64,000 nt of DNA from Acidobacteriota bacterium (lineage in GTDB: Bacteria > Acidobacteriota > Aminicenantia > S016-38): contig WFSJ01000018.1 of NCBI GenBank assembly GCA_015486055.1, forward strand, positions 34,179 to 98,178, given 5' to 3'. The position numbers were made by a program, and so were the translations under genes. The notes beneath the pieces were generated by a model, which saw nothing but the letters and a program-made list of their open reading frames with translations, ran no database searches and was not told where the DNA came from. Of this stretch, positions 3,939 through 42,126 are shown one piece after another; position 1 is the first letter of the stretch, and each line of letters starts with the position of its first letter.

Positions 3939-3978
3939 TAAGGTTTTTAAAGGTTGATAGTTCTGATAGAATCCTCTT

Positions 3979-6545: not shown

Positions 6546-6988
6546 AGAAAATAGCCCTTCTCTGGGCCCACTTCTTTTTTATGGGATTTTTTCCCTTTTT
6601 TGCGGGAACATTTGTGAGCTTGATAATAGCAGCGGCCTATTTTTTCTTTCTTCAGAGCGTAAATCTATGGGTTATGGTAGTCATTTCGGCACTCGTTTTT
6701 TTGACAGGGATTCCGGCATCTTCATATGCCGAAGAATACCAGGGTAAGCAGGACCCAAAAAGCGTTGTCATAGATGAAGTTGCAGGCCAGCTAATAGCTC
6801 TTCTTTGGGCTAAAGGGCTCCTTCAGGTATCCATTGCCTTTGTTCTCTTTAGGATTTTTGATGGATTGAAGCCTTTCCCTCTGAGAAAGTTTGAGGACTT
6901 TGGTGGGGGACTTGGAATAATGATGGATGATGTTGGAGCCGGACTTTATTCCTTAGTTCTTGTTTCTCTATTTAGGCTTTTGAGCTAA
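6542..6988 (+). CDS. pgpA: Phosphatidylglycerophosphatase A
   Basis: 148 aa hydrophobic protein with PgpA motifs (DEVAGQLIALLW ... FRIFDGLKPFPL ... GGLGIMMDDVGAGLYS). ATGA overlap with the rimO stop. Confidence 0.8.
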   Translation: MKKIALLWAHFFFMGFFPFFAGTFVSLIIAAAYFFFLQSVNLWVMVVISALVFLTGIPASSYAEEYQGKQDPKSVVIDEVAGQLIALLWAKGLLQVSIAFVLFRIFDGLKPFPLRKFEDFGGGLGIMMDDVGAGLYSLVLVSLFRLLS

Positions 6989-13536: not shown

Positions 13537-13594
13537 TTATCCCTCCGTTTGTCTTTATTTTAATGCATTTTCTCTAATTATATAAGGAAATTTC

Positions 13595-15076: not shown

Positions 15077-15101
15077 GTTTTCTCCTTCAGTTTAGACTGT
15101 G

Positions 15102-17315
15102 TTAATTAATATATCCAAGGGACTCAAGCACCTTTCTAAATTTCTTTATCTTTTTCTTAGAGAAGGGCTTTAGATCATGAGTTTTGTTGTATTCCTTGTT
15201 CCTTTTGAGCATTCCAAAAGCTTTCTGGCGGAGGAGCCCTGTTAGAAGAGGCTTGCTTGGCGCCAGGTTATGTTTTTCCTTGTCGTCCTCCTCTAAATTA
15301 TAGATTTCATCCCTTCCTTTATAATATATGTATTTGGTTTTCCCATCGGTGAGTCCAATGTTGAAAGCGTCAGAGTTCGCCCGGGAATATAACCATCTTT
15401 TTAGAAGTTTATCTGGCTTTCCAAGAAGTAAGGGAGCAAGGCTCGTTCCCTGAGTTTTCAATTTCGGCTTTATGCCCAATAAGTCATATATCGTGGGGGC
15501 AAAATCTACATTACTATAGGCTGTTTTCTCTACAGATTTTGCCTCTTTCTGACCTGGCATCTTTAGGAAAAATGGGATGTGAATCATTTCCTGATAGTTT
15601 GTAGTGTTATGGTCAAATTTGTAATGCTCATAGAAAGCTTCGCCGTGGTCGGTGCTTACAACTATTAAGGATTTTTCGTAAAGTCCCATGCTTTTTATAG
15701 TATCCAAAACCTTTCCAACAAGATAGTCAGCGTAATAAATGTTATTGAGGTAACAGTTATAAAGCCAATCTATGAACTTAGGAGGAGGATTAAAATCCTT
15801 CTCATATCTTCTTACCAATCTTTTTATAAACATTTGGTTATATCCGAGTGTCTTTTTAATTATATAAAATTGAGGAGGAGGATTGTACGGATAATGTGGA
15901 GGAAGAATATGGATGTACACAAAGTTTGGTTTATATGGATTTATTTTCCTTAAGGTTCTCACCATTAACTTTTCTTTCATGGTAGAATCGTTCAAGAATC
16001 CTATTTTCCCAATATATACAGTTTTATCAAAACGCCCTGAAATTCCGGTTCTTATTGGAATTGCACTCCCAGTTATCAAGAGGGTTGAATATCCAATATT
16101 TCTCAGCTCCTCTGGGAGGGTTAGAAGTTTTTTGCTTGCGATGTTTTTCACATCCCTTATGCCGTGAGCTTCAGGATATAAACCAGTCATGTAGGTAGCC
16201 ACACTTGCAGCAGTATATGGAGCGGAAGTATAAAATTTCTTGAAAGAAAAAGCTTGTTTCGAAAACTTCGTTATATTTGGGACCAGCTCCTTTTTCTCTA
16301 TTATGGTATTATATCTTGCGGCATCTATGAGTATTAAGAAAATATTTGGTTTTCCTTTGATGCGGCCGTTAAACTTGGGAGAAGCTTTTTTGTTTTCCAT
16401 GCCAGTTAAAGCAAGTTTCTTCCAAAGGAGTCTGTTCATCGGGTTCTTTGCCTTATAGATCAATCTTATCCCTATGAGCTTTCCGGCAAAAGACTTGAGA
16501 GAAATATTCCCCTTTCTTTTCTCTGAGTTTTTCAGCTGCAGAATTTTATCGGATATTATTTTTCCTTCTTTGCTCAGGATTGAGATTTTAAGGGTGGCTT
16601 TTGAGGTTTCCTTTTCTCCGATTGAGAGATTCTCTACCTCGTATCTCAGAAGGATTTTTCCCAAAGGAACAAAGAAAAACTCCATTGCTGAATTCGCAGG
16701 CTGAAAAATTCTCTCTGACTTCTTACTGAAAGGTTTTGGAAAAGGGAGTAAAAACTCTACATCTTTTAGGAAAATCAACCTGTGAGGTTTCTTTGTGTGT
16801 TCTTCTTGGAAAATTCTTTTTTCCTCTTCACCGAGCTCAAATTTCAGGAAATTTTCCCCTTCCTTAAGGAATTCTTTCTTTACAGGTATCTTTATCTCTT
16901 CTTCTGAGCTCTTTGCAAATATCTCCCTGCATTTATTCTTGTTAACGAAAATCAATATGTGGACCTTTTTTTTGTCAAAAAAATTTCCTTTTCTAACCTT
17001 GAAGTATAAGTTTCTATCTCTATTTGAAAAGTTGAAGAACCTTATCTTAGCAACAGGAGATGTCATATAAATTTCCTTTCCCTCGGGGTACCAACCGGAT
17101 ATAAAGAAATAGTAAGGATTTTTATTCGGGCTTTTCATGCTTACTGTCTCAGGGAAAAAGTTCTGCCAGCTCAAATTTTTGCTCAAATCATAAGCTCGTT
17201 TATATAATCCGCAGCTGTAGAAGAGGGAAGTTACTAAAGCGAAAAGCACCATAGTAAATATAAGAATCCTTCTATTCATAATTTGAGAATTCTTGCTTAC
17301 CTCATTTTTCTCCAT
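15102..17315 (-). CDS. NPP-family phosphodiesterase with an N-terminal extension of about 330 aa and unknown function. Paralog C
   Basis: C-terminal domain has FLILIDAARYNT and ...TYMTGLYPEAHGI, which matches the NPP [10 protein letters not shown] block almost exactly. N-terminal TM plus an uncharacterised region. Confidence 0.65.
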   Translation of the reverse strand: MEKNEVSKNSQIMNRRILIFTMVLFALVTSLFYSCGLYKRAYDLSKNLSWQNFFPETVSMKSPNKNPYYFFISGWYPEGKEIYMTSPVAKIRFFNFSNRDRNLYFKVRKGNFFDKKKVHILIFVNKNKCREIFAKSSEEEIKIPVKKEFLKEGENFLKFELGEEEKRIFQEEHTKKPHRLIFLKDVEFLLPFPKPFSKKSERIFQPANSAMEFFFVPLGKILLRYEVENLSIGEKETSKATLKISILSKEGKIISDKILQLKNSEKRKGNISLKSFAGKLIGIRLIYKAKNPMNRLLWKKLALTGMENKKASPKFNGRIKGKPNIFLILIDAARYNTIIEKKELVPNITKFSKQAFSFKKFYTSAPYTAASVATYMTGLYPEAHGIRDVKNIASKKLLTLPEELRNIGYSTLLITGSAIPIRTGISGRFDKTVYIGKIGFLNDSTMKEKLMVRTLRKINPYKPNFVYIHILPPHYPYNPPPQFYIIKKTLGYNQMFIKRLVRRYEKDFNPPPKFIDWLYNCYLNNIYYADYLVGKVLDTIKSMGLYEKSLIVVSTDHGEAFYEHYKFDHNTTNYQEMIHIPFFLKMPGQKEAKSVEKTAYSNVDFAPTIYDLLGIKPKLKTQGTSLAPLLLGKPDKLLKRWLYSRANSDAFNIGLTDGKTKYIYYKGRDEIYNLEEDDKEKHNLAPSKPLLTGLLRQKAFGMLKRNKEYNKTHDLKPFSKKKIKKFRKVLESLGYIN

Positions 17316-17389
17316 TATTTTCTCCGTATATGAGATGACTACTATAATGAGATTTCACAAGTTAATTTTATCACTTGTCCCCAATTGCT

Positions 17390-18619
17390 TCATATATAAA
17401 AAATCACCCTTGAAGATGCGAAGAACAGAGTATATATGGCTAAGAGGAAAAAGAAGCAAAGGAAAGTGTATTTTTCGCTCGCCTTATAACGGTGAGAAGC
17501 AAAAAGCAGAACGAAAAGGAGAAATATCTCATAAGAAATTCTCTCAGCGTTTCCTATGTGTCTCCATACTTTATGGTACTTTGTTGAAAGGATGAGAAGG
17601 GAATACAAGGGAAGGGAAATGCTAAGAGGTCCCCATTTTTTCCATAAAAGATAGATTGAAAACAGGAAAAGTAAAATAATGATAACCGAAAAGAAAACAG
17701 CGGCCTCCTTAATGCCTTTTCTATAAAATCCGTGAGATGTTGACCAGAAGAGTTTCGCTACGCCGCTAAAAGGAGTAGTTATAATTTCGGAATTTGAGAG
17801 AAAAGGTCTCCATCCGTAATCCGGGAAAAACCTCCATGTCAGAAAGATTTTCCACAGAAAATATGGAAAAATGGAGGAGAAGAGCAAGACTGGCCTTTTT
17901 GAAGACTTGGTCTTTAAGGATTCAAACGTAGCTAAGACCAGAACGAAGATTATGATAGTTTCTCTTGTAAGAATGGCAAGTGCGAAAAGCAGAGAAGAAA
18001 ATACGAATCTTTCCTTTATGTAGAAATAAAAGCCTCCCAGGAGAAAAGCGCCAGCCACAGCTTCAGGTAGGGCATAGAAGAGGGAGAAATAAAATGATGG
18101 GATTGCGAGGTAAATTAATGCCCAAAGAGGATCCTTACCATAAAATATGAGTATTTTCACGAGGAAAAAGGCTGAAAGAAAAATTGCAAGAAGGATTGTG
18201 TAAACCATTACTTCGGGATACAGCTCTGGTTTATCAAGGGAGAAAATCTTTACAAGGAGAGGAAAACCAATTCTCCCGTATCTATATGGGGGAATGTCTA
18301 AAAACTTCCTGTAAATTTTGGGTTTATCTTTATATTTTTCCGCAAAGGGATCAAAGGTTATAAAATAGAAAAATTGTCCATCATATCCGTGCTTTTTAAT
18401 AACTAAACCTTTTGTTAAATCTCCTCTTTCTTTCAATATTGGATTTTTGTCAATTCTCTTACTTGAGATTTTTAAAAACCCACTGTAATTTCCCCTATAT
18501 CTCTTTTTAAGGTAACCTCTCATCGCAGAGAAAAAAAACAGGAAAACCAAAATTGTAGCAATTGCTGACTTAACAAGGACATTCCTTTTGTTAAGAAGCA
18601 TCTTCAGCCTTTTTTTCAT
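17390..18619 (-). CDS. Polytopic integral membrane protein (at least 9 TM, aromatic-rich), possibly a GT-C-like glycosyl/mannosyl transferase
   Basis: 409 aa with hydrophobic helices throughout. Lies downstream of and co-directional with the NPP triplet. Confidence 0.4.
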   Translation of the reverse strand: MKKRLKMLLNKRNVLVKSAIATILVFLFFFSAMRGYLKKRYRGNYSGFLKISSKRIDKNPILKERGDLTKGLVIKKHGYDGQFFYFITFDPFAEKYKDKPKIYRKFLDIPPYRYGRIGFPLLVKIFSLDKPELYPEVMVYTILLAIFLSAFFLVKILIFYGKDPLWALIYLAIPSFYFSLFYALPEAVAGAFLLGGFYFYIKERFVFSSLLFALAILTRETIIIFVLVLATFESLKTKSSKRPVLLFSSIFPYFLWKIFLTWRFFPDYGWRPFLSNSEIITTPFSGVAKLFWSTSHGFYRKGIKEAAVFFSVIIILLFLFSIYLLWKKWGPLSISLPLYSLLILSTKYHKVWRHIGNAERISYEIFLLFVLLFASHRYKASEKYTFLCFFFLLAIYTLFFASSRVIFYI

Positions 18620-28582: not shown

Positions 28583-28780
28583 ATAAACATTCTAAATAAA
28601 AGTTTCTCCTGAGGTCAAAAGAATGTTATTTAGCACTGAGGTGAAAAGAAAGTCCGAAGGTTCTGAGAACTCCATCCATAAATTTAATTTTCTGTTCCTA
28701 TAATAAAATAAGATTGAAAAAAGAGGAAAATTTTGTTAAGCTGTGCTTGTGAAAGTTAGAACTTTAACAAGAGGAAAGAA

Positions 28781-29404
28781 TTGATTCCTGAAGCAACAAT
28801 AAGAAGGTTAAGCATTTATCTTCGCTGCTTGCGCTATTCTTTAGCACAGGGAGAGTACATTGTTCAATCTATGGACATTGCAAGAAAATGTAGAGTATCC
28901 AGCTCCTTAATGCGGAAGGACCTTTCCTATTTTGGGGGATTTGGTATAAAGGGCAGGGGTTATGATACGAAAAAGCTCATTGAGGCAATAGAAAGAATAA
29001 TAGGAATACACATTAAAATAAAGTTAATAATAGTAGGGATGGGAAATCTTGGAAGGGCCCTCATCAGGCACTTAAAAGAGATTTCGTACTTCAAGATAAT
29101 AGGTGCCTTTGACAGGGACGAAAGAAAAGTGGGAGGAAAAATAGAGGATGTAGAAGTTTTTCATGAGTCCCGATTACCATCTTTCTTGAGAGAGAGAAAG
29201 CCTGAGATAGCTCTACTTGCAATACCTCCTGAATCCCTTCAGGAAGTTGTGAATCTCCTTGGAGAAGGTGAAATAAAGGGGATTTTAAGTTTCGCCCTTT
29301 CTCCTGTAAAAATTCCAGTGGGGGTGGAGATAAGCTTTGTGGAAATTGCCTCAGAGATAGAATATCTTTCTTACAAGATAAATAAAAGGGGGAGAGAGAA
29401 ATGA
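28781..29404 (+). CDS. rex: Redox-sensing transcriptional repressor Rex
   Basis: MIPEATIRRLSIYLRCL winged-helix N-terminus plus Rossmann IIVGMGNLGRAL. TTG start. The stop overlaps the mrpE ATG (ATGA). Confidence 0.8.
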   Translation: MIPEATIRRLSIYLRCLRYSLAQGEYIVQSMDIARKCRVSSSLMRKDLSYFGGFGIKGRGYDTKKLIEAIERIIGIHIKIKLIIVGMGNLGRALIRHLKEISYFKIIGAFDRDERKVGGKIEDVEVFHESRLPSFLRERKPEIALLAIPPESLQEVVNLLGEGEIKGILSFALSPVKIPVGVEISFVEIASEIEYLSYKINKRGREK

Positions 29405-29886
29405 ATGTTGTAGTATCAACTATAGTTCTCTTTGTAATCTGGGTGATAATGACCCAGAGCTTTGATCCTCAGGAGATGTCCGTTGGCCTTGTGGTTGCTG
29501 CCATAATTAGCCTCATGGCTCCAGGGGTTGCAGGGCCAGAGCCCAGGAAATGGCTTCAGCCAAAAAGGTACATTTACGCATTCATTTACATTTTTTATTT
29601 TCTCTATGCAATGGTTAAAGCCAATATTGATGTTGCTCTTAGAGTTATAAACCCGAAACTTCCCATCAATCCAGGTATTGTGAAGGTGAAGACAAAATTG
29701 AAAACAAATGCAGGGAAACTTGCTCTTGCCAATTCTATTACTCTCACTCCAGGAACGCTTTCTGTAGATATAAAGGGAAAATACTTATACATTCACTGGA
29801 TAGATGTGAAGAAGCCTGACATAGAAGGTGCAAGTCAAGAGATAGTCAGGGGATTTGAAAGATTTTTGGAGGTGATCTTTGAATAG
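29401..29886 (+). CDS. Mrp/Mnh-type cation:proton antiporter subunit E
   Basis: 161 aa MnhE-like (VLFVIWVIMTQSF, LTPGTLSVDI). Confidence 0.75.
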   Translation: MNVVVSTIVLFVIWVIMTQSFDPQEMSVGLVVAAIISLMAPGVAGPEPRKWLQPKRYIYAFIYIFYFLYAMVKANIDVALRVINPKLPINPGIVKVKTKLKTNAGKLALANSITLTPGTLSVDIKGKYLYIHWIDVKKPDIEGASQEIVRGFERFLEVIFE

Positions 29887-30136
29887 CCTTCTAATTATAG
29901 TTTTTGCCTTGGTAAGTCTGGCAACGATTTTGTCAGTTGTGAGAATATTTGTGGGTCCTACAATCTCGGACAGAGCTGTTGGCCTTGATACAGCCACCAC
30001 CATAACTACAGCAATGATAGTTCTCTTCTCTCAGATATTTCATAGGGGAATATTCTTGGATGTTGCTCTGGTTTACGCTGTTCTCGCCTTTTTAGGAGTA
30101 ATTGCCCTTGCTCGTTATCTTGAAGGAGGTGTCTAA
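29879..30136 (+). CDS. Mrp antiporter subunit F
   Basis: 85 aa with three TM, MnhF-like (GPTISDRAVGLDTATTI). Confidence 0.7.
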   Translation: MNSLLIIVFALVSLATILSVVRIFVGPTISDRAVGLDTATTITTAMIVLFSQIFHRGIFLDVALVYAVLAFLGVIALARYLEGGV

Positions 30137-30489
30137 TGATTTACAAAATTTTAGGGGAAGTTTTAATCTTCATCGGCGCTCTCTTTCTTTTCCTTGCAGG
30201 ACTTGGAATTGTAAGAATGCCAGATGTTTACAACAGGATGCAGACAGGGACAAAGGCAACAACTCTTGGTGCCATCTCTCTTATCATGGGGGTAGGGATC
30301 TATCATCCCCAGTGGATATTTAAAACAGGGATAATATCCCTTTTCATACTTCTTACAAATCCTGTCTCTTCTCATTCTCTTGCCAGGGCTTCCCACAACT
30401 CTGGAATTCCCCTTACCAAGGGTTCTGTCCTTGATAGATATGCAGAGGATAAGAAAAAGGGATTTAAGGAGGAAGAAAATGATTCTTGA
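30136..30489 (+). CDS. Mrp antiporter subunit G
   Basis: MnhG-like (GIVRMPDVYNRMQTGTKATTLG). GGAGG SD. Confidence 0.75.
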   Translation: MIYKILGEVLIFIGALFLFLAGLGIVRMPDVYNRMQTGTKATTLGAISLIMGVGIYHPQWIFKTGIISLFILLTNPVSSHSLARASHNSGIPLTKGSVLDRYAEDKKKGFKEEENDS

Positions 30490-30724
30490 ATACTTTATGA
30501 TTCTTCTTTTGCTTTTGATGGTTGGACTGGCAATTTATGCTGTTGAAACTAAGGACCTTCTTGCCTCTGTTATTGCCGCTGGGTTTGTTTCCCTTGTGGC
30601 TTCCATTGTTTATCTTTATCTTCAAGCTCCAGATGTGGCGATGACAGAAGCAGCTATTGGAGCCGGTCTTACCACTCTTATTTTCATAATAGCCATCAGA
30701 AAAACAGAGAGGCGTGAAAGATGA
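30479..30724 (+). CDS. Small MrpB-N-terminal-like membrane subunit (DUF4040-like), 81 aa
   Basis: Internal ATG at 30479 preceded by AAGGAGG. Two TM helices. Overlaps the mrpG 3' end. Confidence 0.5.
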   Translation: MILEYFMILLLLLMVGLAIYAVETKDLLASVIAAGFVSLVASIVYLYLQAPDVAMTEAAIGAGLTTLIFIIAIRKTERRER

Positions 30725-31458
30725 GAAAATGGATAGCCATAACATTCCTTTTAATTCTGGGATTCTTTATGTTGAGGATCGCAGGGGCATTTCCCTTTGG
30801 GGAGAATACATGGAAGGTTGCAAGGCAATATGTGAAGAATGTAACAGAAGAAAAATGGTGGGTTGCTGAGCATTATGTGGATAAGGGAATAAAAGAAAAC
30901 AGAGGCTCCAATCTAGTAACATCCATAGTTGTTAATTACAGAGGATTTGACACTCTTGGAGAAGTTACAGTCCTTTTCCTTGCCGCTACTGCCCTTGCTT
31001 TTTTACTTTCCTCCTGTACTTGCTTTAGAAAATATGAAAGGATAGAGGCAAGTCTTATCCTGAAAACGGCATCAGATACCCTTTATCCCCTTTTAATTCT
31101 TTTCGGAGCCTACATATTTATTCACGGGCACCTGACCCCTGGGGGAGGATTTCAGGGAGGAACTGTCATTGCGTCAGCTGTCATGCTTATGCTTCTTGCA
31201 CATTTTTCCTTCCATCCTAACCACGAAGTCCTCTCCGTCACCGAGGGTCTCGCTGGTATCGTATTTGCCGCCATTGGCCTTGCGGGGCTTATATGGGGCA
31301 GAAGCTTCCTTGCAAACAACATACTTCCATTGGGACATTGGAACAGACTATTTTCTGCCGGAGTAATTCCTCTGATATATATAGCCATAGGCTTTAAAGT
31401 AGGTTCCGAGCTTTCTGGCCTTATAACAGATATGTTTAAGGTAACAAAGGAGGAATAA
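30721..31458 (+). CDS. Mrp antiporter subunit B (MnhB domain)
   Basis: NLVTSIVVNYRGFDTLGEVTVLF is the MnhB signature. Confidence 0.7.
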   Translation: MRKWIAITFLLILGFFMLRIAGAFPFGENTWKVARQYVKNVTEEKWWVAEHYVDKGIKENRGSNLVTSIVVNYRGFDTLGEVTVLFLAATALAFLLSSCTCFRKYERIEASLILKTASDTLYPLLILFGAYIFIHGHLTPGGGFQGGTVIASAVMLMLLAHFSFHPNHEVLSVTEGLAGIVFAAIGLAGLIWGRSFLANNILPLGHWNRLFSAGVIPLIYIAIGFKVGSELSGLITDMFKVTKEE

Positions 31459-31808
31459 TGTTTTTCTTTGCTTCTTCAATTGCCTTAATTCTGATAGGTC
31501 TTTATGCAGTTCTTGTAAAGAGGAACATAATGAAAATGGTTATAGGGCTTTCCATAATGGACACAGGAGTGAATATCTTGATCATATCCTTGGGATTCAT
31601 AAGGGGAAAGACAGCACCCATCATAAACGCAAAAGACCTTCTTGTGAGAACTTCCTCAAAGGTTGTTGACCCTGTGCCTCAGGCCCTTGTTCTTACCGCG
31701 ATAGTTATAGGGGTGGCGGTTACCGCTGCAGCCCTTTCAATAGTTATGCTCATGTATAGCAAGAAGAAGAGCCTTGAAATAGAAGAATATAAGGAGCTGA
31801 AATGGTAA
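31458..31808 (+). CDS. Mrp antiporter subunit C (NuoK-like)
   Basis: 116 aa with three TM, NuoK/MnhC-like. Confidence 0.7.
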   Translation: MFFFASSIALILIGLYAVLVKRNIMKMVIGLSIMDTGVNILIISLGFIRGKTAPIINAKDLLVRTSSKVVDPVPQALVLTAIVIGVAVTAAALSIVMLMYSKKKSLEIEEYKELKW

Positions 31809-34800: not shown

Positions 34801-34951
34801 GGTTTCTAAAATATGGAAGGGAATTTATGAATGGACAGGGACCTTTGCCGAGGTTCTCAGGAGATTTTATACAGGAAATATAAATACATACGCAGCATAT
34901 GTGATTCTCATTTCAATATTAATTCTTCACTTCTTTGCTGGGGGGAAATGA
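31802..34951 (+). CDS. Fused double MrpD/NuoN/NuoM-like antiporter subunit (two proton-pumping modules, 1049 aa)
   Basis: First module has NuoN-like FNLFVFIEITSIAAYGL. Second module (from about residue 500) has WELMSWSSFLLV, as in the NuoL/M/N WExxG/SxxSYxLI block. At least 28 TM. Confidence 0.75.
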   Translation: MVNPILIIAITLASAFFIGILQVYSKLWAKVFFFLVLIFDFVAAGANFYGFLSGKITSPILVKIGGFPPPIGINLFVGKAEAAMGFLIFTITLLGAYHLARRGIPEPQGKAMVLFLLLSLGAAGITFTGDFFNLFVFIEITSIAAYGLVASAKTEKSLEAAFKYMVIGSISSTFILLGVVFLYKATGSLNMLDIAKKVKTFPLTPVFSLISLVFFAGLLIELEVFPINGWALDVYQGADPVVVAVLTGAAVKAFYLIFIKAGGYLALPSFFQLSLIFGGGTYLVSQFLAWRQRDVRRLLGYSSVAQLGLLILSAGFFLNNSLPSSSRHFIALAIVLFVFNHSFAKSSLFLLVDNVETREMEGWKGILKRNPLFKFIFSTSVFSITGVPPFPGFWAKLLLIFAIPKEYAWVVGLILLGAVAEIVYYFRFYRIASDGEGEKVKKNLASPLAASLILITGGGVAWSMFSGYMGIMFNSLIIVFLMVAAAIYIFGFSKPLQWTASLVLLGYGIYRFLPSMKANLHGFFLALVFFGGAILLFATYPTSKRLSWSFYPAYLVVIFSLVGIALSTSWLNLFVYWELMSWSSFLLVNMGKKAKRAAWIYAIFSSAGAYSMLAGIYLLPKLSISKIGVTGVLIPVLLITGFLVKMATSPLHIWARDAYGESPDEFTPLLSGIMSKIGVFGSALVFLYVIANISSGPALRYGLAWLGVLTAFFMTLLAVFQEDLKKLLAYSSVGQVGYILLGLAIATPLGWNAALYHTVDHFIFKGLLFVAAAGIIYRVGTSYLPHMGGLIRRMPLTFLAVLIAIISLAGIPPMAGFAGKWLLYSALIEKQWVFITVVAFLASTLAFLYCFKILHTVFLGQLQDENKNAREVPFPIAAAETILLVATVAIGAFPRLLLDPINKVLNKIPGMKNSGLFYEKTLGAVSKLGHWNALFLMVFTVGSFIFALIFFALTSARVREVKQLDVGYAGEVPRQVEDLHFGYDLYAHFRRTVKWLIYPLVSKIWKGIYEWTGTFAEVLRRFYTGNINTYAAYVILISILILHFFAGGK

Positions 34952-35859
34952 TGGGTGTCAAGATATTCTATGCTTTTATAGCTTTGATAGGGGGCATTGC
35001 TTATGGTCTCTTGCTCGGGGGGATTTCAAGGAAAATAACAGCAAGAATGCAAAACAGGAGAGGGCCGACCGTATTCCAGAACTTCATAGATGTGTGGAAA
35101 TTATTCAGAAAGAAGACAGCCATTTCACATGGGGTGATGTTCTACCTTGCTCCCATATTCAGGTTGCTTGGCGGAGCAGGGACTTTCCTTCTTGTCCCCA
35201 TCGTTGTAGGGAACTTTTATCTGAGCAATTTTTCCTTCGGTGGAGATCTTATAGTGATAATGTATTTCATGGTGATGGGATGCCTCGGAATGGCACTTGG
35301 AGCAGCGGAGAGCGGCCATCCTCATGCTCCTATCGGTGTTACAAGGGGGCTTGCACAAATGGCGGGTCAAGAGCTTCCCTTTATAATTTCAGTGGTTGTT
35401 CTAATGATTGTTGATAAAACCACCTCTGTAGAAGGAATAGTAATGGCGCAGCAGGGCGGGATACTTCACTGGCACATATTCACCTATCCTTTTGCAGCGA
35501 TTGCTGCTTTCATAAGCCTTTTAGGAATGATGACTTCCTATCCGTTCGAAATTGTGATGGCACCCCAAGAAATCGCCATTGGTCCTCCCACAGAGTTTAG
35601 CTCAACTTTCCTATCCTACATGTTTTCAGGGAGAAGTGTATTTGCTGTGGCAAAATATGTTCTCTTCATGGACCTTTTTCTTGGTGGTGCAACGAACCTC
35701 CTCTGGGCCTTTTTAAAAACCTTTCTGATTTTCCTGTGGCCATTGTTCATTACGGATGTTTTTCCTCGTTTCAAACTTGAGCAGTCAGTTTCCTTCTTCT
35801 GGACATGGCCAACACTTATAGGGCTGATAGATTTACTAAGAATATACATAGTGAGGTAA
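34948..35859 (+). CDS. NuoH/HycD/MbhM-like membrane subunit
   Basis: RKITARMQNRRGPTVFQNFIDVWKLFRK matches the NuoH R-x-x-x-x-QxRxGP motif. 4-nt overlap with the upstream gene. Confidence 0.8.
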   Translation: MMGVKIFYAFIALIGGIAYGLLLGGISRKITARMQNRRGPTVFQNFIDVWKLFRKKTAISHGVMFYLAPIFRLLGGAGTFLLVPIVVGNFYLSNFSFGGDLIVIMYFMVMGCLGMALGAAESGHPHAPIGVTRGLAQMAGQELPFIISVVVLMIVDKTTSVEGIVMAQQGGILHWHIFTYPFAAIAAFISLLGMMTSYPFEIVMAPQEIAIGPPTEFSSTFLSYMFSGRSVFAVAKYVLFMDLFLGGATNLLWAFLKTFLIFLWPLFITDVFPRFKLEQSVSFFWTWPTLIGLIDLLRIYIVR

Positions 35860-35861
35860 CT

Positions 35862-36434
35862 ATGGGAAAAGATAAATTTCTAAATGAAAAGCCTGAAAAA
35901 TTGACATATTCAGGTGTTTTTAAGAAGATTGACAACTGGGCAAGGGCAAGGTCCCTGTGGGTTGTCGCTTATGGAACAGGGTGCGGTGCCATTGAGCTTC
36001 GCCCTACCTTTACCTCAAGATTTGATGCGGAAAGGTTTGGGATGCGTATGGTTGGCACCCCCCGTCAGGCAGATGTCATCGTTGTAAGCGGTTATCTTAC
36101 TGTGAAAACCTTAAAGAGGGTAATAAGGGTTTACGAACAAATGCAGTCCCCGAAATATGTTGTTGCCCTTGGAGCCTGTCCTATAAACGGAGGTATGTAT
36201 TACGACTCCTACAATGCTATCAACCGCCTTGACCTTTATCTTCCAGTGGATATATGGGTAACAGGTTGCATGCCAAGACCGGAAGCCATTCTCGCAGGTT
36301 TCAAGAGGCTTCAGGAACTCATAGATGACGGAAAAGCAGACGGATGGAAGAAGTACATAGAGGCCCTTGATTGGTATAGAGGAAATCAGAGAAAAATCAT
36401 AAAGAACTGGCGAATGCCTAATTATAACTGGTGA
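35862..36434 (+). CDS. NuoB/hydrogenase small-subunit-like protein
   Basis: VAYGTGCGAIE, GACPINGG and TGCMPRPE N2-cluster-type motifs. The first motif carries a single Cys rather than CC. Confidence 0.8.
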   Translation: MGKDKFLNEKPEKLTYSGVFKKIDNWARARSLWVVAYGTGCGAIELRPTFTSRFDAERFGMRMVGTPRQADVIVVSGYLTVKTLKRVIRVYEQMQSPKYVVALGACPINGGMYYDSYNAINRLDLYLPVDIWVTGCMPRPEAILAGFKRLQELIDDGKADGWKKYIEALDWYRGNQRKIIKNWRMPNYNW

Positions 36435-36442
36435 GGTTGATA

Positions 36443-36973
36443 ATGAATATTATTGAGAGATTAAAGGAAAGATTTGAAGTTCTCATCGCAGAGAAAAAAA
36501 GAAAGGACCTCTTGATAATAGAGACAACAAAGAAGGGACTTATACCCATGCTTTTTTACCTTAAGGAATACGAAGGATACAGAACCCTCACCTTGATATC
36601 CTGTGTGGATTGGATAGAGGATAAAAAATTTCAGATGAGCTATATCCTATGGAACTTTAGAATGAAAGCGAATATCATCGTGAAGTTCATGCTTGATAGG
36701 GAAAACCCCGATTTTGAAACCGTATATAAATTGTGGCCCCAAGCAGAAGCCTACGAAAGAGAAATTCACGAAATGTTCGGGGTGAATTTTGAGGGCAATC
36801 CAACACAGAACGAGGAGCTCATCCTTGAGGATTGGGATAATATTCCTCCAATGAGGAGAGATTTTGATACTCTGAAATATTCAATGGAGAAGTTCGGGGA
36901 GAGGGAACCCAAGAGCCGAATAAATATAAGGAAGGAAATCTCTGAACAATATGACGAATGGAGAAGAAAATGA
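36443..36973 (+). CDS. NuoC (30-kDa)-like subunit
   Basis: TLTLISCVDW...ILWNF... and ...EREIHEMFGVNFEGNP are typical of NuoC/MbhK. Confidence 0.75.
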   Translation: MNIIERLKERFEVLIAEKKRKDLLIIETTKKGLIPMLFYLKEYEGYRTLTLISCVDWIEDKKFQMSYILWNFRMKANIIVKFMLDRENPDFETVYKLWPQAEAYEREIHEMFGVNFEGNPTQNEELILEDWDNIPPMRRDFDTLKYSMEKFGEREPKSRINIRKEISEQYDEWRRK

Positions 36974-38073
36974 GCACGGAAGAAGTTAGACTTTTCATAG
37001 GGCCTCAGCATCCCGGAGTTACCGGGAACATGAGTATAGAAGTTCTTCTTAAAGGGGATACAATCACATGGGCTAAAACCCACATAGGATATCTCCACAG
37101 GGCCTTTGAAAAACTTATGGAGCGGAGGATTTTCATAAAGAGCTTTCCCTTAGTTTGCAGAATATGTGTTCCAGAATCTGACACGAACGAGGAGAATTTA
37201 GCAAGGGGTCTTGAGGAACTTGCAGATATAGAAATTCCGGAAAGAGCAAAATGGATAAGGACATTGGTGCTTGAGCTTTCAAGACTTCAAATGTTTATAA
37301 TGTGGTATGGGGGGATAGCAGGCTCCATGGGACTTTCTACTCCTGTTCAGTGGGGGATAGGAGACAGGGATTACATCCTTGACCTTTTTGAAGAGCTTAC
37401 AGGGGGAAGGGTTTATCACATATATATTCTTCCAGGAGGTGTGAGGAAGGACCTTCCAGAGGGTTTTGAAGAAAGGGTTTTAAAGACAATGGATCTAATA
37501 GAGAGAAGGCTTCCTGAATACGATGAGCTCATAATGGATAATGCTGTGGAGCAGAAGAGATTAAAAGGACTTGCTCCTATCCCAAAGGAATGGGTAGAAG
37601 AAATGGGAATAACGGGTCCAGTGGCAAGGGCATGTGGTTTTCCCTACGATGTGAGGAAGAACAGTCCCTATGAGGCTTACGACAAATTGGATTTTGATGT
37701 GATAACAGAAGATGGATGCGATGTTTGGTCAATGCTACTTGTGAGGAGGAGAGAAATTGATCTTAGTATAAAACTTATAAGAGAAATAGTAAGTAAAATG
37801 CCCAAAGGAGAGTTCCTCACAAGGCTTCCTAATGTCCTTTACTGGGAGATACCAAAAGGAGAAACCTATGTAAAATCGGAGGCAACAAGAGGTGAATTTG
37901 GCTATTACATATTCACCGATGGTTCAGGAAAGCCGAGAAGAGTTCATGTAAAGGGTCCTTCTTTCATACACGGGATAACTCTTCTTGAGAGGCTTCTTGT
38001 TGGGCAGAACATAGCGGATGTAGCACCAATTTTGGTGGCTCTTCAAATTTGTCCACCAGAGATGGAAAGATAG
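36958..38073 (+). CDS. NuoD/[NiFe]-hydrogenase large-subunit-like protein with incomplete Ni-Fe ligand set
   Basis: LFIGPQHPGVTGNMSIEV...HIGYLHRAFEK matches NuoD/large subunit. An N-terminal CxxC is present (LVCRICVPE). The C-terminus has QICPPE, one Cys, in place of DPCxxC. Confidence 0.8.
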   Translation: MEKKMSTEEVRLFIGPQHPGVTGNMSIEVLLKGDTITWAKTHIGYLHRAFEKLMERRIFIKSFPLVCRICVPESDTNEENLARGLEELADIEIPERAKWIRTLVLELSRLQMFIMWYGGIAGSMGLSTPVQWGIGDRDYILDLFEELTGGRVYHIYILPGGVRKDLPEGFEERVLKTMDLIERRLPEYDELIMDNAVEQKRLKGLAPIPKEWVEEMGITGPVARACGFPYDVRKNSPYEAYDKLDFDVITEDGCDVWSMLLVRRREIDLSIKLIREIVSKMPKGEFLTRLPNVLYWEIPKGETYVKSEATRGEFGYYIFTDGSGKPRRVHVKGPSFIHGITLLERLLVGQNIADVAPILVALQICPPEMER

Positions 38074-38083
38074 GAGGGAAAAA

Positions 38084-39856
38084 ATGGGACTTAAGGAAGT
38101 TCTAAAACCTCTGGGGGCCTGGAGACAGATAGCTAGGAAACCCCACACAATTCTTGTTCCCAAGGTACATAGAGAGGCGGCCGAAAGATACAGAGGATTC
38201 CATGTTAATGATCTTGGAAAGTGCATAGGGTGTGGAACCTGTGCTGCAGTTTGTCCCAATGAGGCTATAGATATGGTAAAGATTGAAGGAATAGAAGGAA
38301 AGAAGGGAGATTCAGGATTCCGCCCCAGAATTGATTATGGAAGGTGTTGCTGGTGCGGTCTTTGTGTTGATTCCTGTCCCACAACATCCTTAAGAATGAC
38401 TAACGAGTATATCTGGATAAGGGAAGCCCCTGACGATTTTGTTTATATCCCAGGATATGACATAAAGGGATTTGAGCAGAAGGAAAAGGGATATAGAAAG
38501 GATAAGGAGCACAGCTTTACAGATTATCACAGGGTTCCCATGAGAGAAAAGGAACCAGAGGAAAGGCTCCAGACCTTTGCGGAAGTAGTGCTTGGTTATA
38601 CTGAAGAGGAAGCAAGAAAAGAGGCGGACCGTTGCATTGGCTGCGGGCTCTGTATATCAGGGTGCCCTGATAGAATGCACATCCCAGATTACATAAGGGC
38701 TGTAGCCTCAGGGGAATATGAGCGCTCTGTTAACATAATGTATGAGAATAATCCCTTTGCTGAGCTTTGCGGCAAGGTGTGCACGAGAAGATGCGAGAGC
38801 TATTGCTCCCTGGGGAATGAGGGAGATCCTGTTGCCATAAGATGGCTTAAGAGGTTCGCTACGGAGAGGTTTTCAGATCTTAAAGAAGTCATAAGAGCTA
38901 GGAAACAGGAATTAAAGGATAAATCCGTGGGGATAATAGGGGCGGGACCCGGAGGTCTCACTGCGGCCTATTACCTTGCCCTCAGAGGTTATAAGGTGAC
39001 AGTTTACGAGGCAATGCCAGAGGCAGGGGGAATGACTATGGCAGGGATACCCAAATACAGGTTTCCCCTTCCATCCCTTAAGAAGCAGGTGGAATTTATC
39101 CTGTCCCAGGGCGTCGAACTAAAAACCAATTACTTTGTTGACCCTGAGAAATTCAGAAATCTCATGGAAATCCACGATGCCATTTATCTTGGAGTCGGTC
39201 TTTTAAAACCATGGAAACTTGGGGTCCCGGGTGAAGACCATCCCAATGTTATATATGCTATTGATTACCTCAGGAAAGTGAACTTTAATGAGTCAGTAAA
39301 GATTGGCAATGAAGTTGTTGTAATTGGCGGTGGAGATGTTGCTATAGATGCAGCAAGAGTTTCTCGTCGATTCGGAGCAAAGGTTACCATTGGTTACAGA
39401 AGGAGAAAAGTAGATATGCCTGCAGACCGTGAGGAAATTGAGGGAGCAGAGGAAGAAGGGGTTGAGATCTGGGAGAAAATAATCCCGTTAAGAGTGGAAG
39501 ATGCGCCCGAGGGAAGAGTGAAACTCGTCTATGGAAAGGCCCGCATGGTAGACCAGGGACCTGGAAGAAGACCAAAGCCTGTTTTGATAGAAGGAGAAGA
39601 GTATGAAATTTTGGTTGACAGGATAATTGTTGCTATAGGACAGCAGGCAGATCTCACCTTTTTGCCCCAGGAGTTCGCAGAGAAGATGGAAGTAGAAAGA
39701 GGCCGCATAAAGGTGAATGAAAGGCAGATGACCTCCATCTCCGGAATTTTCGCAGGAGGAGATGTGGCAAACAGGGTTGCAGATGCCATATCAGCCATTG
39801 CAGATGGTTTACGCGCAGTGAAAGGCATAGAGCTTTATTTCCAGGGAAAATCCTGA
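38084..39856 (+). CDS. Fusion protein: NuoI-like 2x[4Fe-4S] ferredoxin domain plus GltD/NfnB/SudA-like NAD(P)H-dependent flavoprotein domain
   Basis: CIGCGTCAAVCP and CCWCGLCVDSCP are NuoI-like. CIGCGLCISGCP is a third ferredoxin motif. LCGKVCTRRCESYC matches the GltD N-terminal cluster. IIGAGPGGLTAAYYL...EAGG and VVVIGGGDVAIDAAR are the FAD and NAD(P) folds. Confidence 0.8.
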   Translation: MGLKEVLKPLGAWRQIARKPHTILVPKVHREAAERYRGFHVNDLGKCIGCGTCAAVCPNEAIDMVKIEGIEGKKGDSGFRPRIDYGRCCWCGLCVDSCPTTSLRMTNEYIWIREAPDDFVYIPGYDIKGFEQKEKGYRKDKEHSFTDYHRVPMREKEPEERLQTFAEVVLGYTEEEARKEADRCIGCGLCISGCPDRMHIPDYIRAVASGEYERSVNIMYENNPFAELCGKVCTRRCESYCSLGNEGDPVAIRWLKRFATERFSDLKEVIRARKQELKDKSVGIIGAGPGGLTAAYYLALRGYKVTVYEAMPEAGGMTMAGIPKYRFPLPSLKKQVEFILSQGVELKTNYFVDPEKFRNLMEIHDAIYLGVGLLKPWKLGVPGEDHPNVIYAIDYLRKVNFNESVKIGNEVVVIGGGDVAIDAARVSRRFGAKVTIGYRRRKVDMPADREEIEGAEEEGVEIWEKIIPLRVEDAPEGRVKLVYGKARMVDQGPGRRPKPVLIEGEEYEILVDRIIVAIGQQADLTFLPQEFAEKMEVERGRIKVNERQMTSISGIFAGGDVANRVADAISAIADGLRAVKGIELYFQGKS

Positions 39857-39911
39857 AGACTCTATTGAAATTTTTCTTGAAAAGGGAAGGAATTTTGTTT
39901 ATATTTTTCCT

Positions 39912-40280
39912 GTGAGAAAGAAAAGTGGATTTTATCTCTTCCTTTCATGGTTAATTCCGGGAGCTGGCCATTTTATCCTCGGGAAAAAGATAGAGGGCAT
40001 TGTAATTTTTCTTTCCATATTATATTTCTTCATTATCGGTATTATTCTTGGGGGAAGATTCATAGGAACGAATGAGGGATCTCCTCTTACAGTTTTTCTG
40101 ACATTTTCTGACCTCGGAAGCGGGATGTTTTATTTTATCGGGAAAGTATTAGGACTAGGAGCCCAGCTTAAGGCAAACTGGACAAGTGATTATGGGACTT
40201 TCTTTCTCGTAGGAGGAGGACTTATAAACTATCTTGCAGCAGTAAAGGCCTATGAAATAGCAGAAGGGATAAAGAAGTGA
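39912..40280 (+). CDS. TM2-domain-like small membrane protein
   Basis: SWLIPGAGHFILGKKIEGIVIFL resembles the TM2 G-x-H-R-F-Y-x-G block. 122 aa. Confidence 0.4.
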   Translation: MRKKSGFYLFLSWLIPGAGHFILGKKIEGIVIFLSILYFFIIGIILGGRFIGTNEGSPLTVFLTFSDLGSGMFYFIGKVLGLGAQLKANWTSDYGTFFLVGGGLINYLAAVKAYEIAEGIKK

Positions 40281-40443
40281 GAAGCTATATTTTGATTCTC
40301 CTCCTTTTTTCTGTCCCGGCTTCCGTGGACCTTGCACTTATAAGAAGGGATAAAAGAAAGGACAGGATGAAATACGGGATAAAATCCTTTCTGTGGATGG
40401 TCGTAGCCTCAATACTCTTCGGTTGGTTAATGTATATATTAAA

Positions 40444-42126
40444 ATGAGGAGATACTGCGGAAGCCTAAGGAAAAAGGATGTAGGGAAGGATGTCGTTGTA
40501 AAGGGTTGGGTACAGAGAACAAGAAACTTAGGGGCCCTTGTTTTTGCAGATATAAGGGATAGGGAAGGAGTAGTGCAAATAGTAGGAGGAAAGGAAGTTG
40601 GGGCTCTGAGGCCAGAATGGGTCGTTGAAATAAAGGGGAAGGTTGAAGAAAGAGAGGTGAAAAACCCATCCTTATCAACAGGGGAAATAGAGATAAAAGT
40701 CGAGTCTATGAAAGTTCTCAGCAAAGCTAAAATACCTCCTTTCCATGTTCTTGATGAAGTGGATGTTTCAGAAGAGGTAAGGCTCAGATATAGGTATATT
40801 GACCTTCGTCGTCCAAGGATGCAGAGGAATATTATATTGAGACACAGGATGGCAATGGTAGCAAGAACTTATCTTGACTCCCTAGGTTTTATTGAGGTGG
40901 AGACCCCAATCCTTACAAAATCAACTCCTGAAGGGGCAAGGGATTTTCTTGTTCCCTCAAGAAATTACAAAGGCAAATTTTATGCCCTTCCTCAGTCCCC
41001 TCAGCTTTTTAAGCAGCTTCTCATGATCTCGGGGCTTGATAGATATTTTCAACTTGCAAAATGCTTCAGGGATGAAGATCTGAGAGCTGATAGGCAGCCC
41101 GAATTTACACAAATAGATGTAGAGATGAGCTTTCCGCAAGAGGAGCAGATTATTGAAATAACAGAGGGTCTTTTGAAAGAAATGTTTGCAGCCTCCGGGA
41201 TCAATATTAGTGTTCCATTTCCCCAGCTTACATACAGGGAAGCAATGAATAGATATGGGAGTGATAAGCCAGATCTAAGGATACCTTACAAAATAGATGA
41301 TCTTACAGAAATGAGCATGGGTGGAGGAAATAGGATTATTGAGGAAGTAATTTATTCAGGCGGAAAATTACTCGGCATGAAAATACCGAATGGACTTACA
41401 AGGAAGGAAATTGATTCCCTAAATTCTTTCATAAAGGAACTTAGTGGAGATGGGATTTTCTGGCTGAAAATAGAAGATGGAATAAGAGGTAACCTGAAAG
41501 GAAATGAGGAATGGAAAGAGAAGCTTTGCGACTCTCTCGATCTTCACAAAGGGGACACAGCCGTTTTTGTGGCGGGGAAAGGGATCAAAGAATTGATGGG
41601 CTCTTTAAGGGTCAAGGCTGCAAGAATTAAAGGGGATGTGGAAGAAGGCATGAAATTCCTCTGGGTGAGGGATTTCCCCCTTTTTGAGCTTGATTCTGAG
41701 GGCAATTTAACATCAAACCATCATCCTTTTACATCTCCTGCAAATGAAGATGTTTCTATTTTGGAGAGGGAACCTCTTAAGGCGCTTTCAAGGACCTATG
41801 ATGTTGTGCTGAATGGAATTGAGCTTGGAGGAGGAGGCATAAGAATAAATGATGCCGAACTTCAGAGAAAGATACTTAAAATCCTCGGCATTGAGGAAAG
41901 CAGATTTTCTTTTCTGATAGAAGCTTTGGAACATGGAGCACCTCCCCATGGAGGAATTGCCCTCGGATTCGATAGAATTGTGATGATGGCCGCAGGGGAA
42001 GAATCAATAAGAGATGTTATAGCTTTCCCTAAAACTACCTCTGGCCTTTGTCTTCTAACAGGAACTCCTTCTGATGTAGATAAACCTCAGCTTAGGGACC
42101 TTGGGATAAAAATCACCTCCTCATAA
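40444..42126 (+). CDS. aspS: Aspartyl-tRNA synthetase (bacterial type)
   Basis: FRDEDLRADRQPEFTQIDVEMSF, the insertion (GAD) domain, C-terminal GGIALGFDRI. The track ORF starts at 40393, but the AspRS-like N-terminus MRRYCGSL begins about 40444. Confidence 0.9.
   Translation: MRRYCGSLRKKDVGKDVVVKGWVQRTRNLGALVFADIRDREGVVQIVGGKEVGALRPEWVVEIKGKVEEREVKNPSLSTGEIEIKVESMKVLSKAKIPPFHVLDEVDVSEEVRLRYRYIDLRRPRMQRNIILRHRMAMVARTYLDSLGFIEVETPILTKSTPEGARDFLVPSRNYKGKFYALPQSPQLFKQLLMISGLDRYFQLAKCFRDEDLRADRQPEFTQIDVEMSFPQEEQIIEITEGLLKEMFAASGINISVPFPQLTYREAMNRYGSDKPDLRIPYKIDDLTEMSMGGGNRIIEEVIYSGGKLLGMKIPNGLTRKEIDSLNSFIKELSGDGIFWLKIEDGIRGNLKGNEEWKEKLCDSLDLHKGDTAVFVAGKGIKELMGSLRVKAARIKGDVEEGMKFLWVRDFPLFELDSEGNLTSNHHPFTSPANEDVSILEREPLKALSRTYDVVLNGIELGGGGIRINDAELQRKILKILGIEESRFSFLIEALEHGAPPHGGIALGFDRIVMMAAGEESIRDVIAFPKTTSGLCLLTGTPSDVDKPQLRDLGIKITSS

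Follow-up and report, generated by a model that had tools for sequence, protein, structure and literature searches.

A fused MbsN-NfnB-type subunit in the Mbx operon of an Aminicenantia bacterium

The fusion gene

The 64-kb stretch of contig WFSJ01000018.1 (assembly GCA_015486055.1) from an Acidobacteriota bacterium of the lineage Aminicenantia, called the window below and always meant at its full length, contains an operon of 13 genes that encodes a bacterial relative of MBS, the sulfur-reducing complex of archaea (Table 1). The last gene of the operon specifies a single protein of 590 amino acids (aa), to which all residue numbers refer, in which an MbsN-type subunit is followed by a flavoprotein of the NfnB/SudA class. 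This fusion is almost certainly the terminal subunit of the peripheral arm of a bacterial Mbx complex. An initial annotation, made from the letters of the DNA, had proposed a NuoI-type ferredoxin fused to a GltD/NfnB/SudA-like NADPH flavoprotein as the last gene of a complex without a NuoEFG module, and the reading frame does cross the ferredoxin-GltD junction without interruption.

Pfam domains were found in the order that had been described, a Fer4 dicluster domain (residues 41-104) preceding Fer4_20, Pyr_redox_2 and Pyr_redox (411-482), with scores far above chance. Every motif named in the initial annotation is present in the 590-aa translation. Both MbsN-type motifs, C47-x2-C50-x2-C53-x3-C57-P and C88-x2-C91-x2-C94-x3-C98-P, lie inside the first 100 residues; they are followed by CIGCGLCISGCP (residues 184-195), LCGKVCTRRCESYC (228-241), IIGAGPGGLTAAYYL...YEAMPEAGG (283-316) and VVVIGGGDVAIDAAR...YRR (411-440). 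The FAD motif GxGPxG takes the form G286-A-G-P-G-G291, and the dinucleotide fold has GGG at residues 415-417 and then YRRR at 438-441. An alignment of 24 family members (53-89% identity) has 16 invariant cysteines, namely the eight of MbsN type (C47, C50, C53, C57, C88, C91, C94 and C98) and the eight of Fer4_20, and GxGPxG, R326, GGG and YRR are likewise invariant. Next to C88, the ligand that opens the second motif of MbsN type, stands a further cysteine, Cys89 (RCCWC; window positions 38348-38350), which is also invariant in the 24 close homologues; Thermosipho and certain other divergent members have Ser or Thr instead.

Table 1. Features of the operon and of the fusion gene (window coordinates)
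Feature	Position	Strand	Basis or remark
Candidate operator, 26-bp palindrome CTTGTGAAAGTT-AG-AACTTTAACAAG	28746..28771	+	10 nt upstream of the rex TTG start
rex, redox-sensing repressor, 207 aa, TTG start, first operon gene	28781..29404	+	Pfam Put_DNA-bind_N and CoA_binding; stop overlaps next start
MbsA-like (MnhE) membrane subunit	29401..29886	+	Pfam MNHE, E = 1.8e-42
MbsB-like (MrpF) membrane subunit	29879..30136	+	Pfam MrpF_PhaF, E = 1e-18
MbsC-like (MnhG) membrane subunit	30136..30489	+	Pfam PhaG_MnhG_YufB, E = 2e-25
MbsD-like subunit, 81 aa	30479..30724	+	Pfam MbhD, E = 3.8e-22; gene call from identical contig L001
MbsE-like (MbhE and MnhB) subunit	30721..31458	+	Pfam MnhB, E = 1.6e-24; MbhE, E = 4.2e-10
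MbsG-like (NuoK/MnhC-type) subunit	31458..31808	+	Pfam Oxidored_q2, E = 4.8e-25
Fused MbsH and MbsH' antiporter-like subunit, 1049 aa	31802..34951	+	Two Proton_antipo_M stretches
MbsM-like (NuoH-type) membrane anchor	34951..35859	+	Pfam NADHdh, E = 1.4e-50; start from L001
MbsJ-like (NuoB-type) subunit, three-Cys proximal [4Fe-4S]	35862..36434	+	6u8y_J, E = 2.6e-66
MbsK-like (NuoC-type) subunit	36443..36973	+	Pfam Complex1_30kDa, E = 1e-27
MbsL-like (NuoD / NiFe large-subunit type) subunit, two vestigial Cys	36970..38073	+	6u8y_L, E = 6.9e-94
MbsN-NfnB-like fusion, whole gene	38084..39856	+	590 codons and stop, no interruption
Fusion residues 1-137, MbsN/NuoI-type domain, two [4Fe-4S]	38084..38494	+	6u8y_N match, Fer4 dicluster
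Fusion residues 138-161, part of linker past MbsN homology and before NfnB-like module	38495..38566	+	Few invariant columns
Fusion residues 162-264, Fer4_20, two [4Fe-4S] clusters	38567..38875	+	Pfam, E = 6.7e-28; eight Cys
Fusion residues 281-575, FAD- and NADPH-binding domains	38924..39808	+	Pfam Pyr_redox_2, E = 2.5e-32

Authenticity and distribution

That an assembly chimera or a frameshift joined separate NuoI-like and GltD-like genes is so improbable that this explanation is rejected, on the strength of independent contigs and of conservation. Three contigs from independent assemblies, among them an ENA metagenome scaffold and the NCBI metagenome-assembled genome (MAG) GCA_027006605.1, encode the 590-aa protein in identical form, and a contig of 127 kb has the same operon with an 89%-identical ortholog. 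A protein search recovered clusters 577-619 aa long, more than 120 in number, with query coverage of at least 96%. In species-representative genomes, 576 relatives were confirmed; the best 80 of these loci are near-full-length fusions from about a dozen phyla, with N-terminal truncation in only two, of which one lies at the end of a contig. The same fusion is found on a 1.27-Mb contig of the cultured Thermosipho melanesiensis (ABR31076.1, 616 aa, 40% identity to the window fusion over the full length).

The closest loci (87-88% identity) belong to Candidatus Aminicenantes. Others among the best 80 belong to Acidobacteriota, Bacteroidales, Saprospiraceae, Flavobacteriaceae, Ignavibacteria/Melioribacter, Chlorobiota, Calditrichaceae, Krumholzibacteriota, Neomarinimicrobiota, Deferribacteres, Leptospira/Turneriella, Myxococcota and Planctomycetota. 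Many of the related loci come from MAGs with isolate names that hint at sulfidic or hydrothermal sites (Zod, SulCav, AUK, PIR, 4559-240), an anecdotal link to sulfur that may be a sampling bias. When the N-terminal 160 aa were searched exhaustively, the closest relatives were again fused proteins or their fragments, and the nearest unfused MbsN-like proteins (P0130 and P0136) are on contigs of 1.6 and 2.1 kb, too short for gene context.

The fusion is already known, both in the literature and as an NCBIfam model, and the protein of the window adds a member from Aminicenantes. NCBIfam model NF010590/PRK13984 (putative oxidoreductase) is matched end to end, residues 3-588 aligning to positions 8-608 of the 611 in the profile; this existing model of the whole architecture also speaks against an artefact. 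The score (631.8 bits) is under the equivalog cutoff of 946, which implies that the window protein has the same architecture and is outside the equivalog. Degli Esposti (2015) described the fusion for Thermotoga, took the module for a site of NAD(P)+ reduction, and observed that the operon often ends with rubrerythrin. No account of the fusion beyond that paper was found in the literature searched, and with the terms searched no mention of the complex was found in the Caldithrix and Melioribacter genome papers.

Relationship of the two modules to proteins of known structure

Among solved structures, the best relative of residues 6-137 was MbsN of Pyrococcus furiosus MBS (6u8y_N, E = 1.3e-23), versus approximately 1e-9 to 1e-13 for NuoI chains of complex I and 2e-9 for MbhN of the hydrogenase MBH. 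The description of this part as a NuoI-type ferredoxin is thus apt for its two Cx2Cx2Cx3CP motifs, but the domain is closer to MbsN than to NuoI of complex I. The C-terminal module, from about residue 150 to residue 589, belongs to the GltD/NfnB/SudA class as had been proposed, with its best matches to T. sibiricus NfnABC (9n5u_A, 2.4e-86), Thermotoga maritima NfnB (4ylf_B, 5e-83) and P. furiosus NfnI-L (5jca_L, 1.5e-77); the true GltD chains matched more weakly (about 1e-58 to 1e-60).

Alignment with T. maritima NfnB showed the residues for FAD and NAD(P)H to be intact. The cysteines C39, 42, 47, 51, 86, 90, 96 and 100 of NfnB correspond to C184, 187, 190, 194, 229, 233, 237 and 241 of the fusion, Arg187 corresponds to R326, and Y310-R311-R312 corresponds to Y438-R439-R440. 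According to a review of Nfn, Arg187 contacts N5 of the flavin and two arginines bind the 2'-phosphate of NADP.

Both domains of the fusion were modelled confidently by AlphaFold2, whereas the N-terminus and the linker were not: the predicted local distance difference test score (pLDDT) was 77.9 and the predicted template modelling score 0.76, with pLDDT below 50 at residues 1-38 and 110-136, so that the geometry between the domains and the continuity of a wire across them are not fixed by the model. Superposition on 5jca_L gave a template modelling score (normalised to the target) of 0.86 and a root-mean-square deviation of 2.5 A, and the ranges over 5jca_L and 4ylf_B together were 0.85-0.86 and 2.5-3.1 A. 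A Foldseek search of the Protein Data Bank matched the NfnB fold, and no solved structure in it covered the whole fusion.

The nucleotide-binding motif divides the family. YRRR, encoded at window positions 39395-39406, is present in the window fusion and in 79 of the 80 related loci, while (S/C)LE occupies this place in Thermosipho, WOR-3 and other divergent fused members (P0127, P0129, P0140, P0141, P0145, P0152, P0161). By the general rule for Rossmann folds, the acidic residue of (S/C)LE is read as NADH-type, and the two motifs probably mark NADPH-using and NADH-using subfamilies.

The host complex

The gene order A-B-C-D-E-G-H-H'-M-J-K-L-N is that of P. furiosus mbs and combines Mrp-type subunits with subunits of NuoH, NuoB, NuoC, NuoD and NuoI types. 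Pfam assignment of the operon genes revealed no further Fer4/NuoI-type gene, and the fusion must therefore supply subunit N; it also bore out the absence of a NuoEFG module. The product of the single open reading frame for MbsH and MbsH' matches NCBIfam PRK08377 at residues 3-451 and PRK08668 at 455-1043. This single frame occurs also in the closest Aminicenantes relatives, and Thermosipho has two genes instead, for proteins of 450 and 614 aa (positions 3743-6940 of its locus, L087).

The identity of the complex as Mbx/MBS-type follows from the features of the subunits of MbsL and MbsJ type, from their active-site residues and from relative E-values. The MbsJ-like subunit matched MbsJ far better than MbhJ (3.1e-32) and keeps the motifs GTGCG, GACPINGG and GCMPRPE. 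The three ligating cysteines of P. furiosus MbsJ (C28, C93 and C123) are conserved, and a glycine at the position of C25 makes a fourth cysteine ligand from that motif impossible. The MbsL-like subunit likewise matched MbsL better than MbhL (2.4e-39), its RICVPESD and C-terminal CPPEMER aligning with RICVPEPD and CPPDIDR of P. furiosus MbsL. The second cysteine of both former NiFe CxxC motifs is a glutamate (C-V-P-E and C-P-P-E) and the first is kept. The quinone ligands His38 and Tyr87 of Thermus thermophilus Nqo4 align with Thr and Val. In the published structure of MBS, P. furiosus MbsL keeps two (C85 and C385) of the four NiFe-ligating cysteines, the three-Cys proximal cluster is the catalytic site of polysulfide reduction, and MbsN carries the distal and medial clusters and receives electrons from ferredoxin; the same paper reports that archaeal Mbx, formerly assigned a ferredoxin:NADP+ role, proved to be a sulfane reductase.

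Two other identities were considered for the complex and rejected. Complex I is contradicted by the lack of the quinone ligands (H38 and Y87 of Nqo4), the single cysteine in GTGCG and the absence of NuoE, NuoF and NuoG, and a Group 4 [NiFe] hydrogenase (MBH) by the retention of only two of the four NiFe cysteines and by the weaker match to MbhL than to MbsL.

Conservation of the operon was assessed by tblastn of its proteins against the best 80 loci. Of these, 72 extend more than 1.3 kb upstream of the fusion, and in each the gene immediately before the fusion is MbsL-like; 46 extend more than 9.3 kb, and 45 of them keep all eleven upstream genes co-linear. In subunit L, the motifs R(I/F/M)CVPE.D and CPPE(I/M)ER are near-universal across the related loci, and (Y/F)GTGCG with a single cysteine is found in every one of 67 MbsJ homologues.

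As had been proposed, the fusion is the terminal gene of the complex: it follows the NuoD-like gene by 10 nt, and the gene beyond it is not conserved in related loci. That gene (39912-40280), which encodes a DUF6677 membrane protein, begins 55 nt past the fusion, and a promoter-like site lies in between, at 39877-39905. The identical contigs keep the gene, but in none of the 80 related loci is it found downstream of the fusion, and for this reason it is probably outside the system. Elsewhere the fusion is directly followed, on the same strand, by a rubrerythrin-like gene (13 of 63 loci, e.g. L047 11788-12267), or is directly followed by a gene for a dihydroorotate dehydrogenase (DHOD)-like FMN protein (12 of 63, e.g. 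L039 4550-5539, mainly in Calditrichaceae, Melioribacter and Ignavibacteriales), never by both (0 of 63). In P0129 (764 aa) a rubrerythrin domain is joined to the C-terminus of the fusion itself. No partner gene of either type was found in the window.

Control region and Rex

The first gene of the operon encodes Rex (NCBIfam NF003995, scoring 199 bits with the cutoff at 126) and is conserved upstream of the operon in L003, L005, L007, L009 and L010. On an identical contig, the automatic gene call (L001 827-1321) cut rex to 164 aa with an ATG start and so lost the DNA-binding domain; when TTG at 28781 is taken as the start, Put_DNA-bind_N (residues 2-49) is recovered and the protein agrees with the 209-aa ortholog in L003.

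The palindrome upstream of rex has arms of 12 nt that are 92% complementary. It reads CTTGTTTAAGTTAGAACTTTCACAAG in L003 and L007, with two further differences in L005, and a -10-like box stands just before each. Its outer half-sites are Rex-like and are spaced 10 nt apart, compared with the N4 of validated Rex operators such as that in the T. maritima Rex co-crystal. A search for N6-spaced Rex boxes yielded nothing above chance, and a search for N4-spaced boxes yielded no site near the promoter in the window, so that the conserved palindrome is no more than a candidate operator.

In Thermosipho, a divergent rex (L087 475-1104) abuts the mbx operon. The best two N4 Rex-box matches in the whole 21.8 kb of L087 (1120-1137 and 1416-1433, two mismatches each) both fall in the rex-mbx control region, one of them intergenic and the other just within the first mbx gene; their placement suggests Rex control of mbx in Thermotogae. 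The same stretch contains, 4.7 kb downstream of the mbx operon, a gene (16553-17893) for a 446-aa flavoprotein with Pyr_redox_2 and Pyr_redox_dim domains, which is the domain class of the NAD(P)H sulfur oxidoreductase NSR, and a Rex-like site with three mismatches (16430-16447) lies upstream of it.

Direction of electron flow

From these features we infer a continuous wire, a direction of flow, a type of acceptor and a coupling to ions. The MbsN-type residues (about 1-137) would dock onto the module of MbsJ, MbsK, MbsL and MbsM types and hold the distal and medial clusters, while residues from about 150 to 590 would give the complex a built-in NADP(H) site composed of two [4Fe-4S] clusters, FAD and an NADPH-type pocket; the four clusters would connect this site with the MbsJ-like subunit's three-Cys proximal cluster. 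In an over-reduced cell, Rex would be released and NADPH, probably along with ferredoxin, would give electrons that pass from FAD through the two [4Fe-4S] clusters and the MbsN clusters to the proximal cluster, where an acceptor of sulfane-sulfur type, or a related one, would be reduced, and the Mrp-like membrane arm would couple this flow to the export of Na+ or H+. The probability that NAD(P)H is a donor in this manner, probably alongside ferredoxin, is put at about one half.

Several observations favour NAD(P)H as donor. Electrons presumably reach the catalytic module, because that module is so strongly conserved. In glutamate synthase and dihydropyrimidine dehydrogenase (DPD), cassettes of GltD type pass electrons from NADPH through FAD and two [4Fe-4S] clusters to further clusters, and these precedents are counted in favour, as are the rex gene at the head of the operon and the Rex boxes of Thermosipho. 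Rex derepresses at high NADH, which suits the disposal of electrons, and its position at the operon head mildly favours oxidation of NAD(P)H. The 4.4-fold increase of T. maritima mbxA with S0, the sole experimental datum found in the literature searched, is also counted as evidence for this reading.

A number of points weigh against it. With NADPH at about -320 to -370 mV and polysulfide at about -260 mV, transfer between the two leaves little energy for ion pumping. The Nfn review gives -513 and -718 mV for the NfnB-type clusters in Nfn, potentials that suit electrons at the level of ferredoxin, and the published reading is the reverse of the present one, with the module as a site of NAD(P)+ reduction and Mbx as a ferredoxin:NADP oxidoreductase. 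Rex also controls the NADPH-forming Nfn, so that linkage to Rex does not settle the direction of electrons; moreover, Rex senses NADH while YRRR points to NADPH. The low pLDDT at residues 1-38 and 110-136 means that the tunnelling distance between the Fer4_20 and MbsN clusters is not given by the model, no genes of sulfur metabolism were found within the 64-kb window, and neither enzymology nor a structure of any fused bacterial Mbx was found in the literature searched.

The main alternative, possible although we consider it doubtful, runs the other way: ferredoxin would feed the MbsN-type clusters, and the NfnB-like clusters and FAD would serve as the way out to NADP+. The complex would then be a membrane ferredoxin:NADP+ oxidoreductase, as Mbx was first hypothesised to be, and reduction of sulfur at the proximal cluster could go on in parallel. 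A drop from ferredoxin to NADP+ gives about 130-180 mV, enough for ion translocation, a metabolic model of Mesotoga has Mbx as an NADP:ferredoxin oxidoreductase supplying NAD(P)H, and in Nfn, by the review cited above, the NfnB-type clusters are at ferredoxin-level potentials and NfnB works physiologically toward NADPH formation. Such a path would leave out the proximal cluster, and with it the three-loop coupling site behind the ion pumping of MBS, MBH and complex I, whereas 67 to 72 loci have kept both the three-Cys cluster and the MbsL motifs; induction of Rex type at high NADH fits the making of reduced nicotinamide poorly, although Nfn is a counter-example, and it was for archaeal Mbx, once given this very role, that sulfane reduction was demonstrated. 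A bifurcating or confurcating FAD as in NfnB, with the electrons of NADPH split between the Fe-S chain and a second partner or with NADPH and ferredoxin confurcated onto the acceptor, is very unlikely. The module is indeed nearer to bifurcating NfnB and NfnI-L than to GltD, and the arginine that contacts N5 of the bifurcating FAD (Arg187 in T. maritima) is invariant as R326, but the Fe-S motif spacing is unlike the NfnB consensus and an NfnA-like partner ([2Fe-2S]/FAD) is absent from the operon and from the 64-kb window. DPD, which we take to be non-bifurcating, appears to have an arginine at the position of R326, and if so this residue is not diagnostic of bifurcation. Candidates for the second partner would be an NfnA-like protein encoded elsewhere or the rubrerythrin-like and DHOD-like proteins encoded after the fusion in other lineages, one relative even having the rubrerythrin domain at its own C-terminus, but the window contains neither of these two types.

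Very unlikely, too, is an NADPH:quinone oxidoreductase resembling complex I, with the NfnB-like module as a substitute for NuoEFG and menaquinone as the final acceptor. Menaquinone is present in many of the host phyla, the overall logic resembles that of complex I with another input module, and NCBIfam labels the neighbouring genes NuoB, NuoD and NuoH. Set against this are the Thr and Val that align with His38 and Tyr87 of Nqo4, the single cysteine of the NuoB-like subunit where complex I has tandem CC, the far better scores of subunits J, L and N against MBS than against any complex I, and a membrane arm that is of Mrp/MBS type (MnhE, F, G, MbhD, MbhE) rather than composed of NuoA, NuoJ and NuoL.

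Significance

Bacterial Mbx is annotated in many anaerobes, and metabolic models use it as a ferredoxin:NADP+ oxidoreductase or as a sulfur reductase. The MbsN-NfnB fusion is the rule in a family of 576 stretches of reference genomes, the three-Cys cluster of MBS type is kept family-wide, and two distant phyla show rex linked to the operon; the donor, the acceptor and the site of energy coupling of bacterial Mbx are now directly testable questions in cultured hosts. If NAD(P)H is truly the donor, the fusion would represent a second, independent way of giving a complex-I-like pump an input module for nicotinamide. A broader and quite tentative possibility is that these complexes form a widespread, unrecognised respiratory class, in which an Mrp-type pump with NfnB-type input in place of NuoEFG or free ferredoxin may carry electrons from NAD(P)H to sulfane sulfur or another non-quinone acceptor at the three-Cys cluster, with NADPH and NADH subfamilies across lineages and possibly with confurcation.

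Other genes in the window

The rest of the window contains housekeeping genes and a cluster of three sulfatase genes. The latter are consecutive on the minus strand (12037-17315) and encode proteins of 499, 493 and 737 aa, the last with an SGSH_C domain, which hints at the use of sulfated polysaccharides. Two genes for class II aminoacyl-tRNA synthetases of D/K/N type are also present, one (3979-5274) encoding a 431-aa form without a GAD domain and the other (40393-42126) a 577-aa form of aspartyl-tRNA synthetase type with a GAD domain.

Comparison with known systems

The window operon resembles P. furiosus MBS (formerly MBX; 6U8Y), which is the best solved relative of subunits J, L and N and has in common with it the gene order, the three-Cys proximal cluster and the two vestigial NiFe cysteines in L. 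C25 of P. furiosus MbsJ is present and non-ligating, where the window subunit has glycine. The archaeal MbsN is a free-standing protein of 208 aa fed by ferredoxin, whereas its homologue in the window is the N-terminal 137 aa of a protein that continues into an NADPH flavoprotein of about 450 aa. NuoI (TYKY) of respiratory complex I also has two Cx2Cx2Cx3CP motifs, and NuoI models match residues from about 6 to 130, but the match is far weaker than that to MbsN and the complex I context (NuoEFG, NuoA/J/L and the quinone-site residues) is absent here.

With NfnB, NfnI-L and SudA (4YLF_B, 5JCA_L) the C-terminal module shares the fold, eight cysteines, the FAD motif, the N5 arginine and the arginines for the 2'-phosphate. 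It differs in its first cluster motif, RCx2Cx2Cx3CPD compared with the consensus RCx2Cx4Cx3CPV of NfnB, and in its second, where GKVCTRRCESYC is two residues shorter than GRVCPQExQCx3C and lacks PQE. Nfn has NfnA as its partner, which is absent from the operon and the window here, and the module of the fusion is covalently joined to a subunit of a membrane complex. The GltD-type modules of glutamate synthase, DPD and StnC/NfnABC-type fusions (6S6S, 1GT8, 8OH5_C, 9BOV_A, 9N5U_A) likewise join a cassette of NADPH site, FAD and two [4Fe-4S] clusters to the longer Fe-S wire of another enzyme, but their partners are soluble catalytic subunits, while in the fusion this place is taken by the peripheral arm of an ion-translocating complex of Mrp type.

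The mbx operon of Thermotogae (Thermotoga maritima, Thermosipho melanesiensis) shares the order of its 13 genes with the window, an MbxN-NfnB-like fusion again coming last, and in Thermosipho rex is adjacent. There, SLER (probably NADH-type) takes the place of the YRRR (NADPH-type) of the window clade, H and H' are separate and rex is divergent, whereas in the window H and H' are fused and rex is co-directional; a rubrerythrin-like gene follows the fusion in Thermosipho (L087 11853-12356), in contrast to the window, where none lies downstream.

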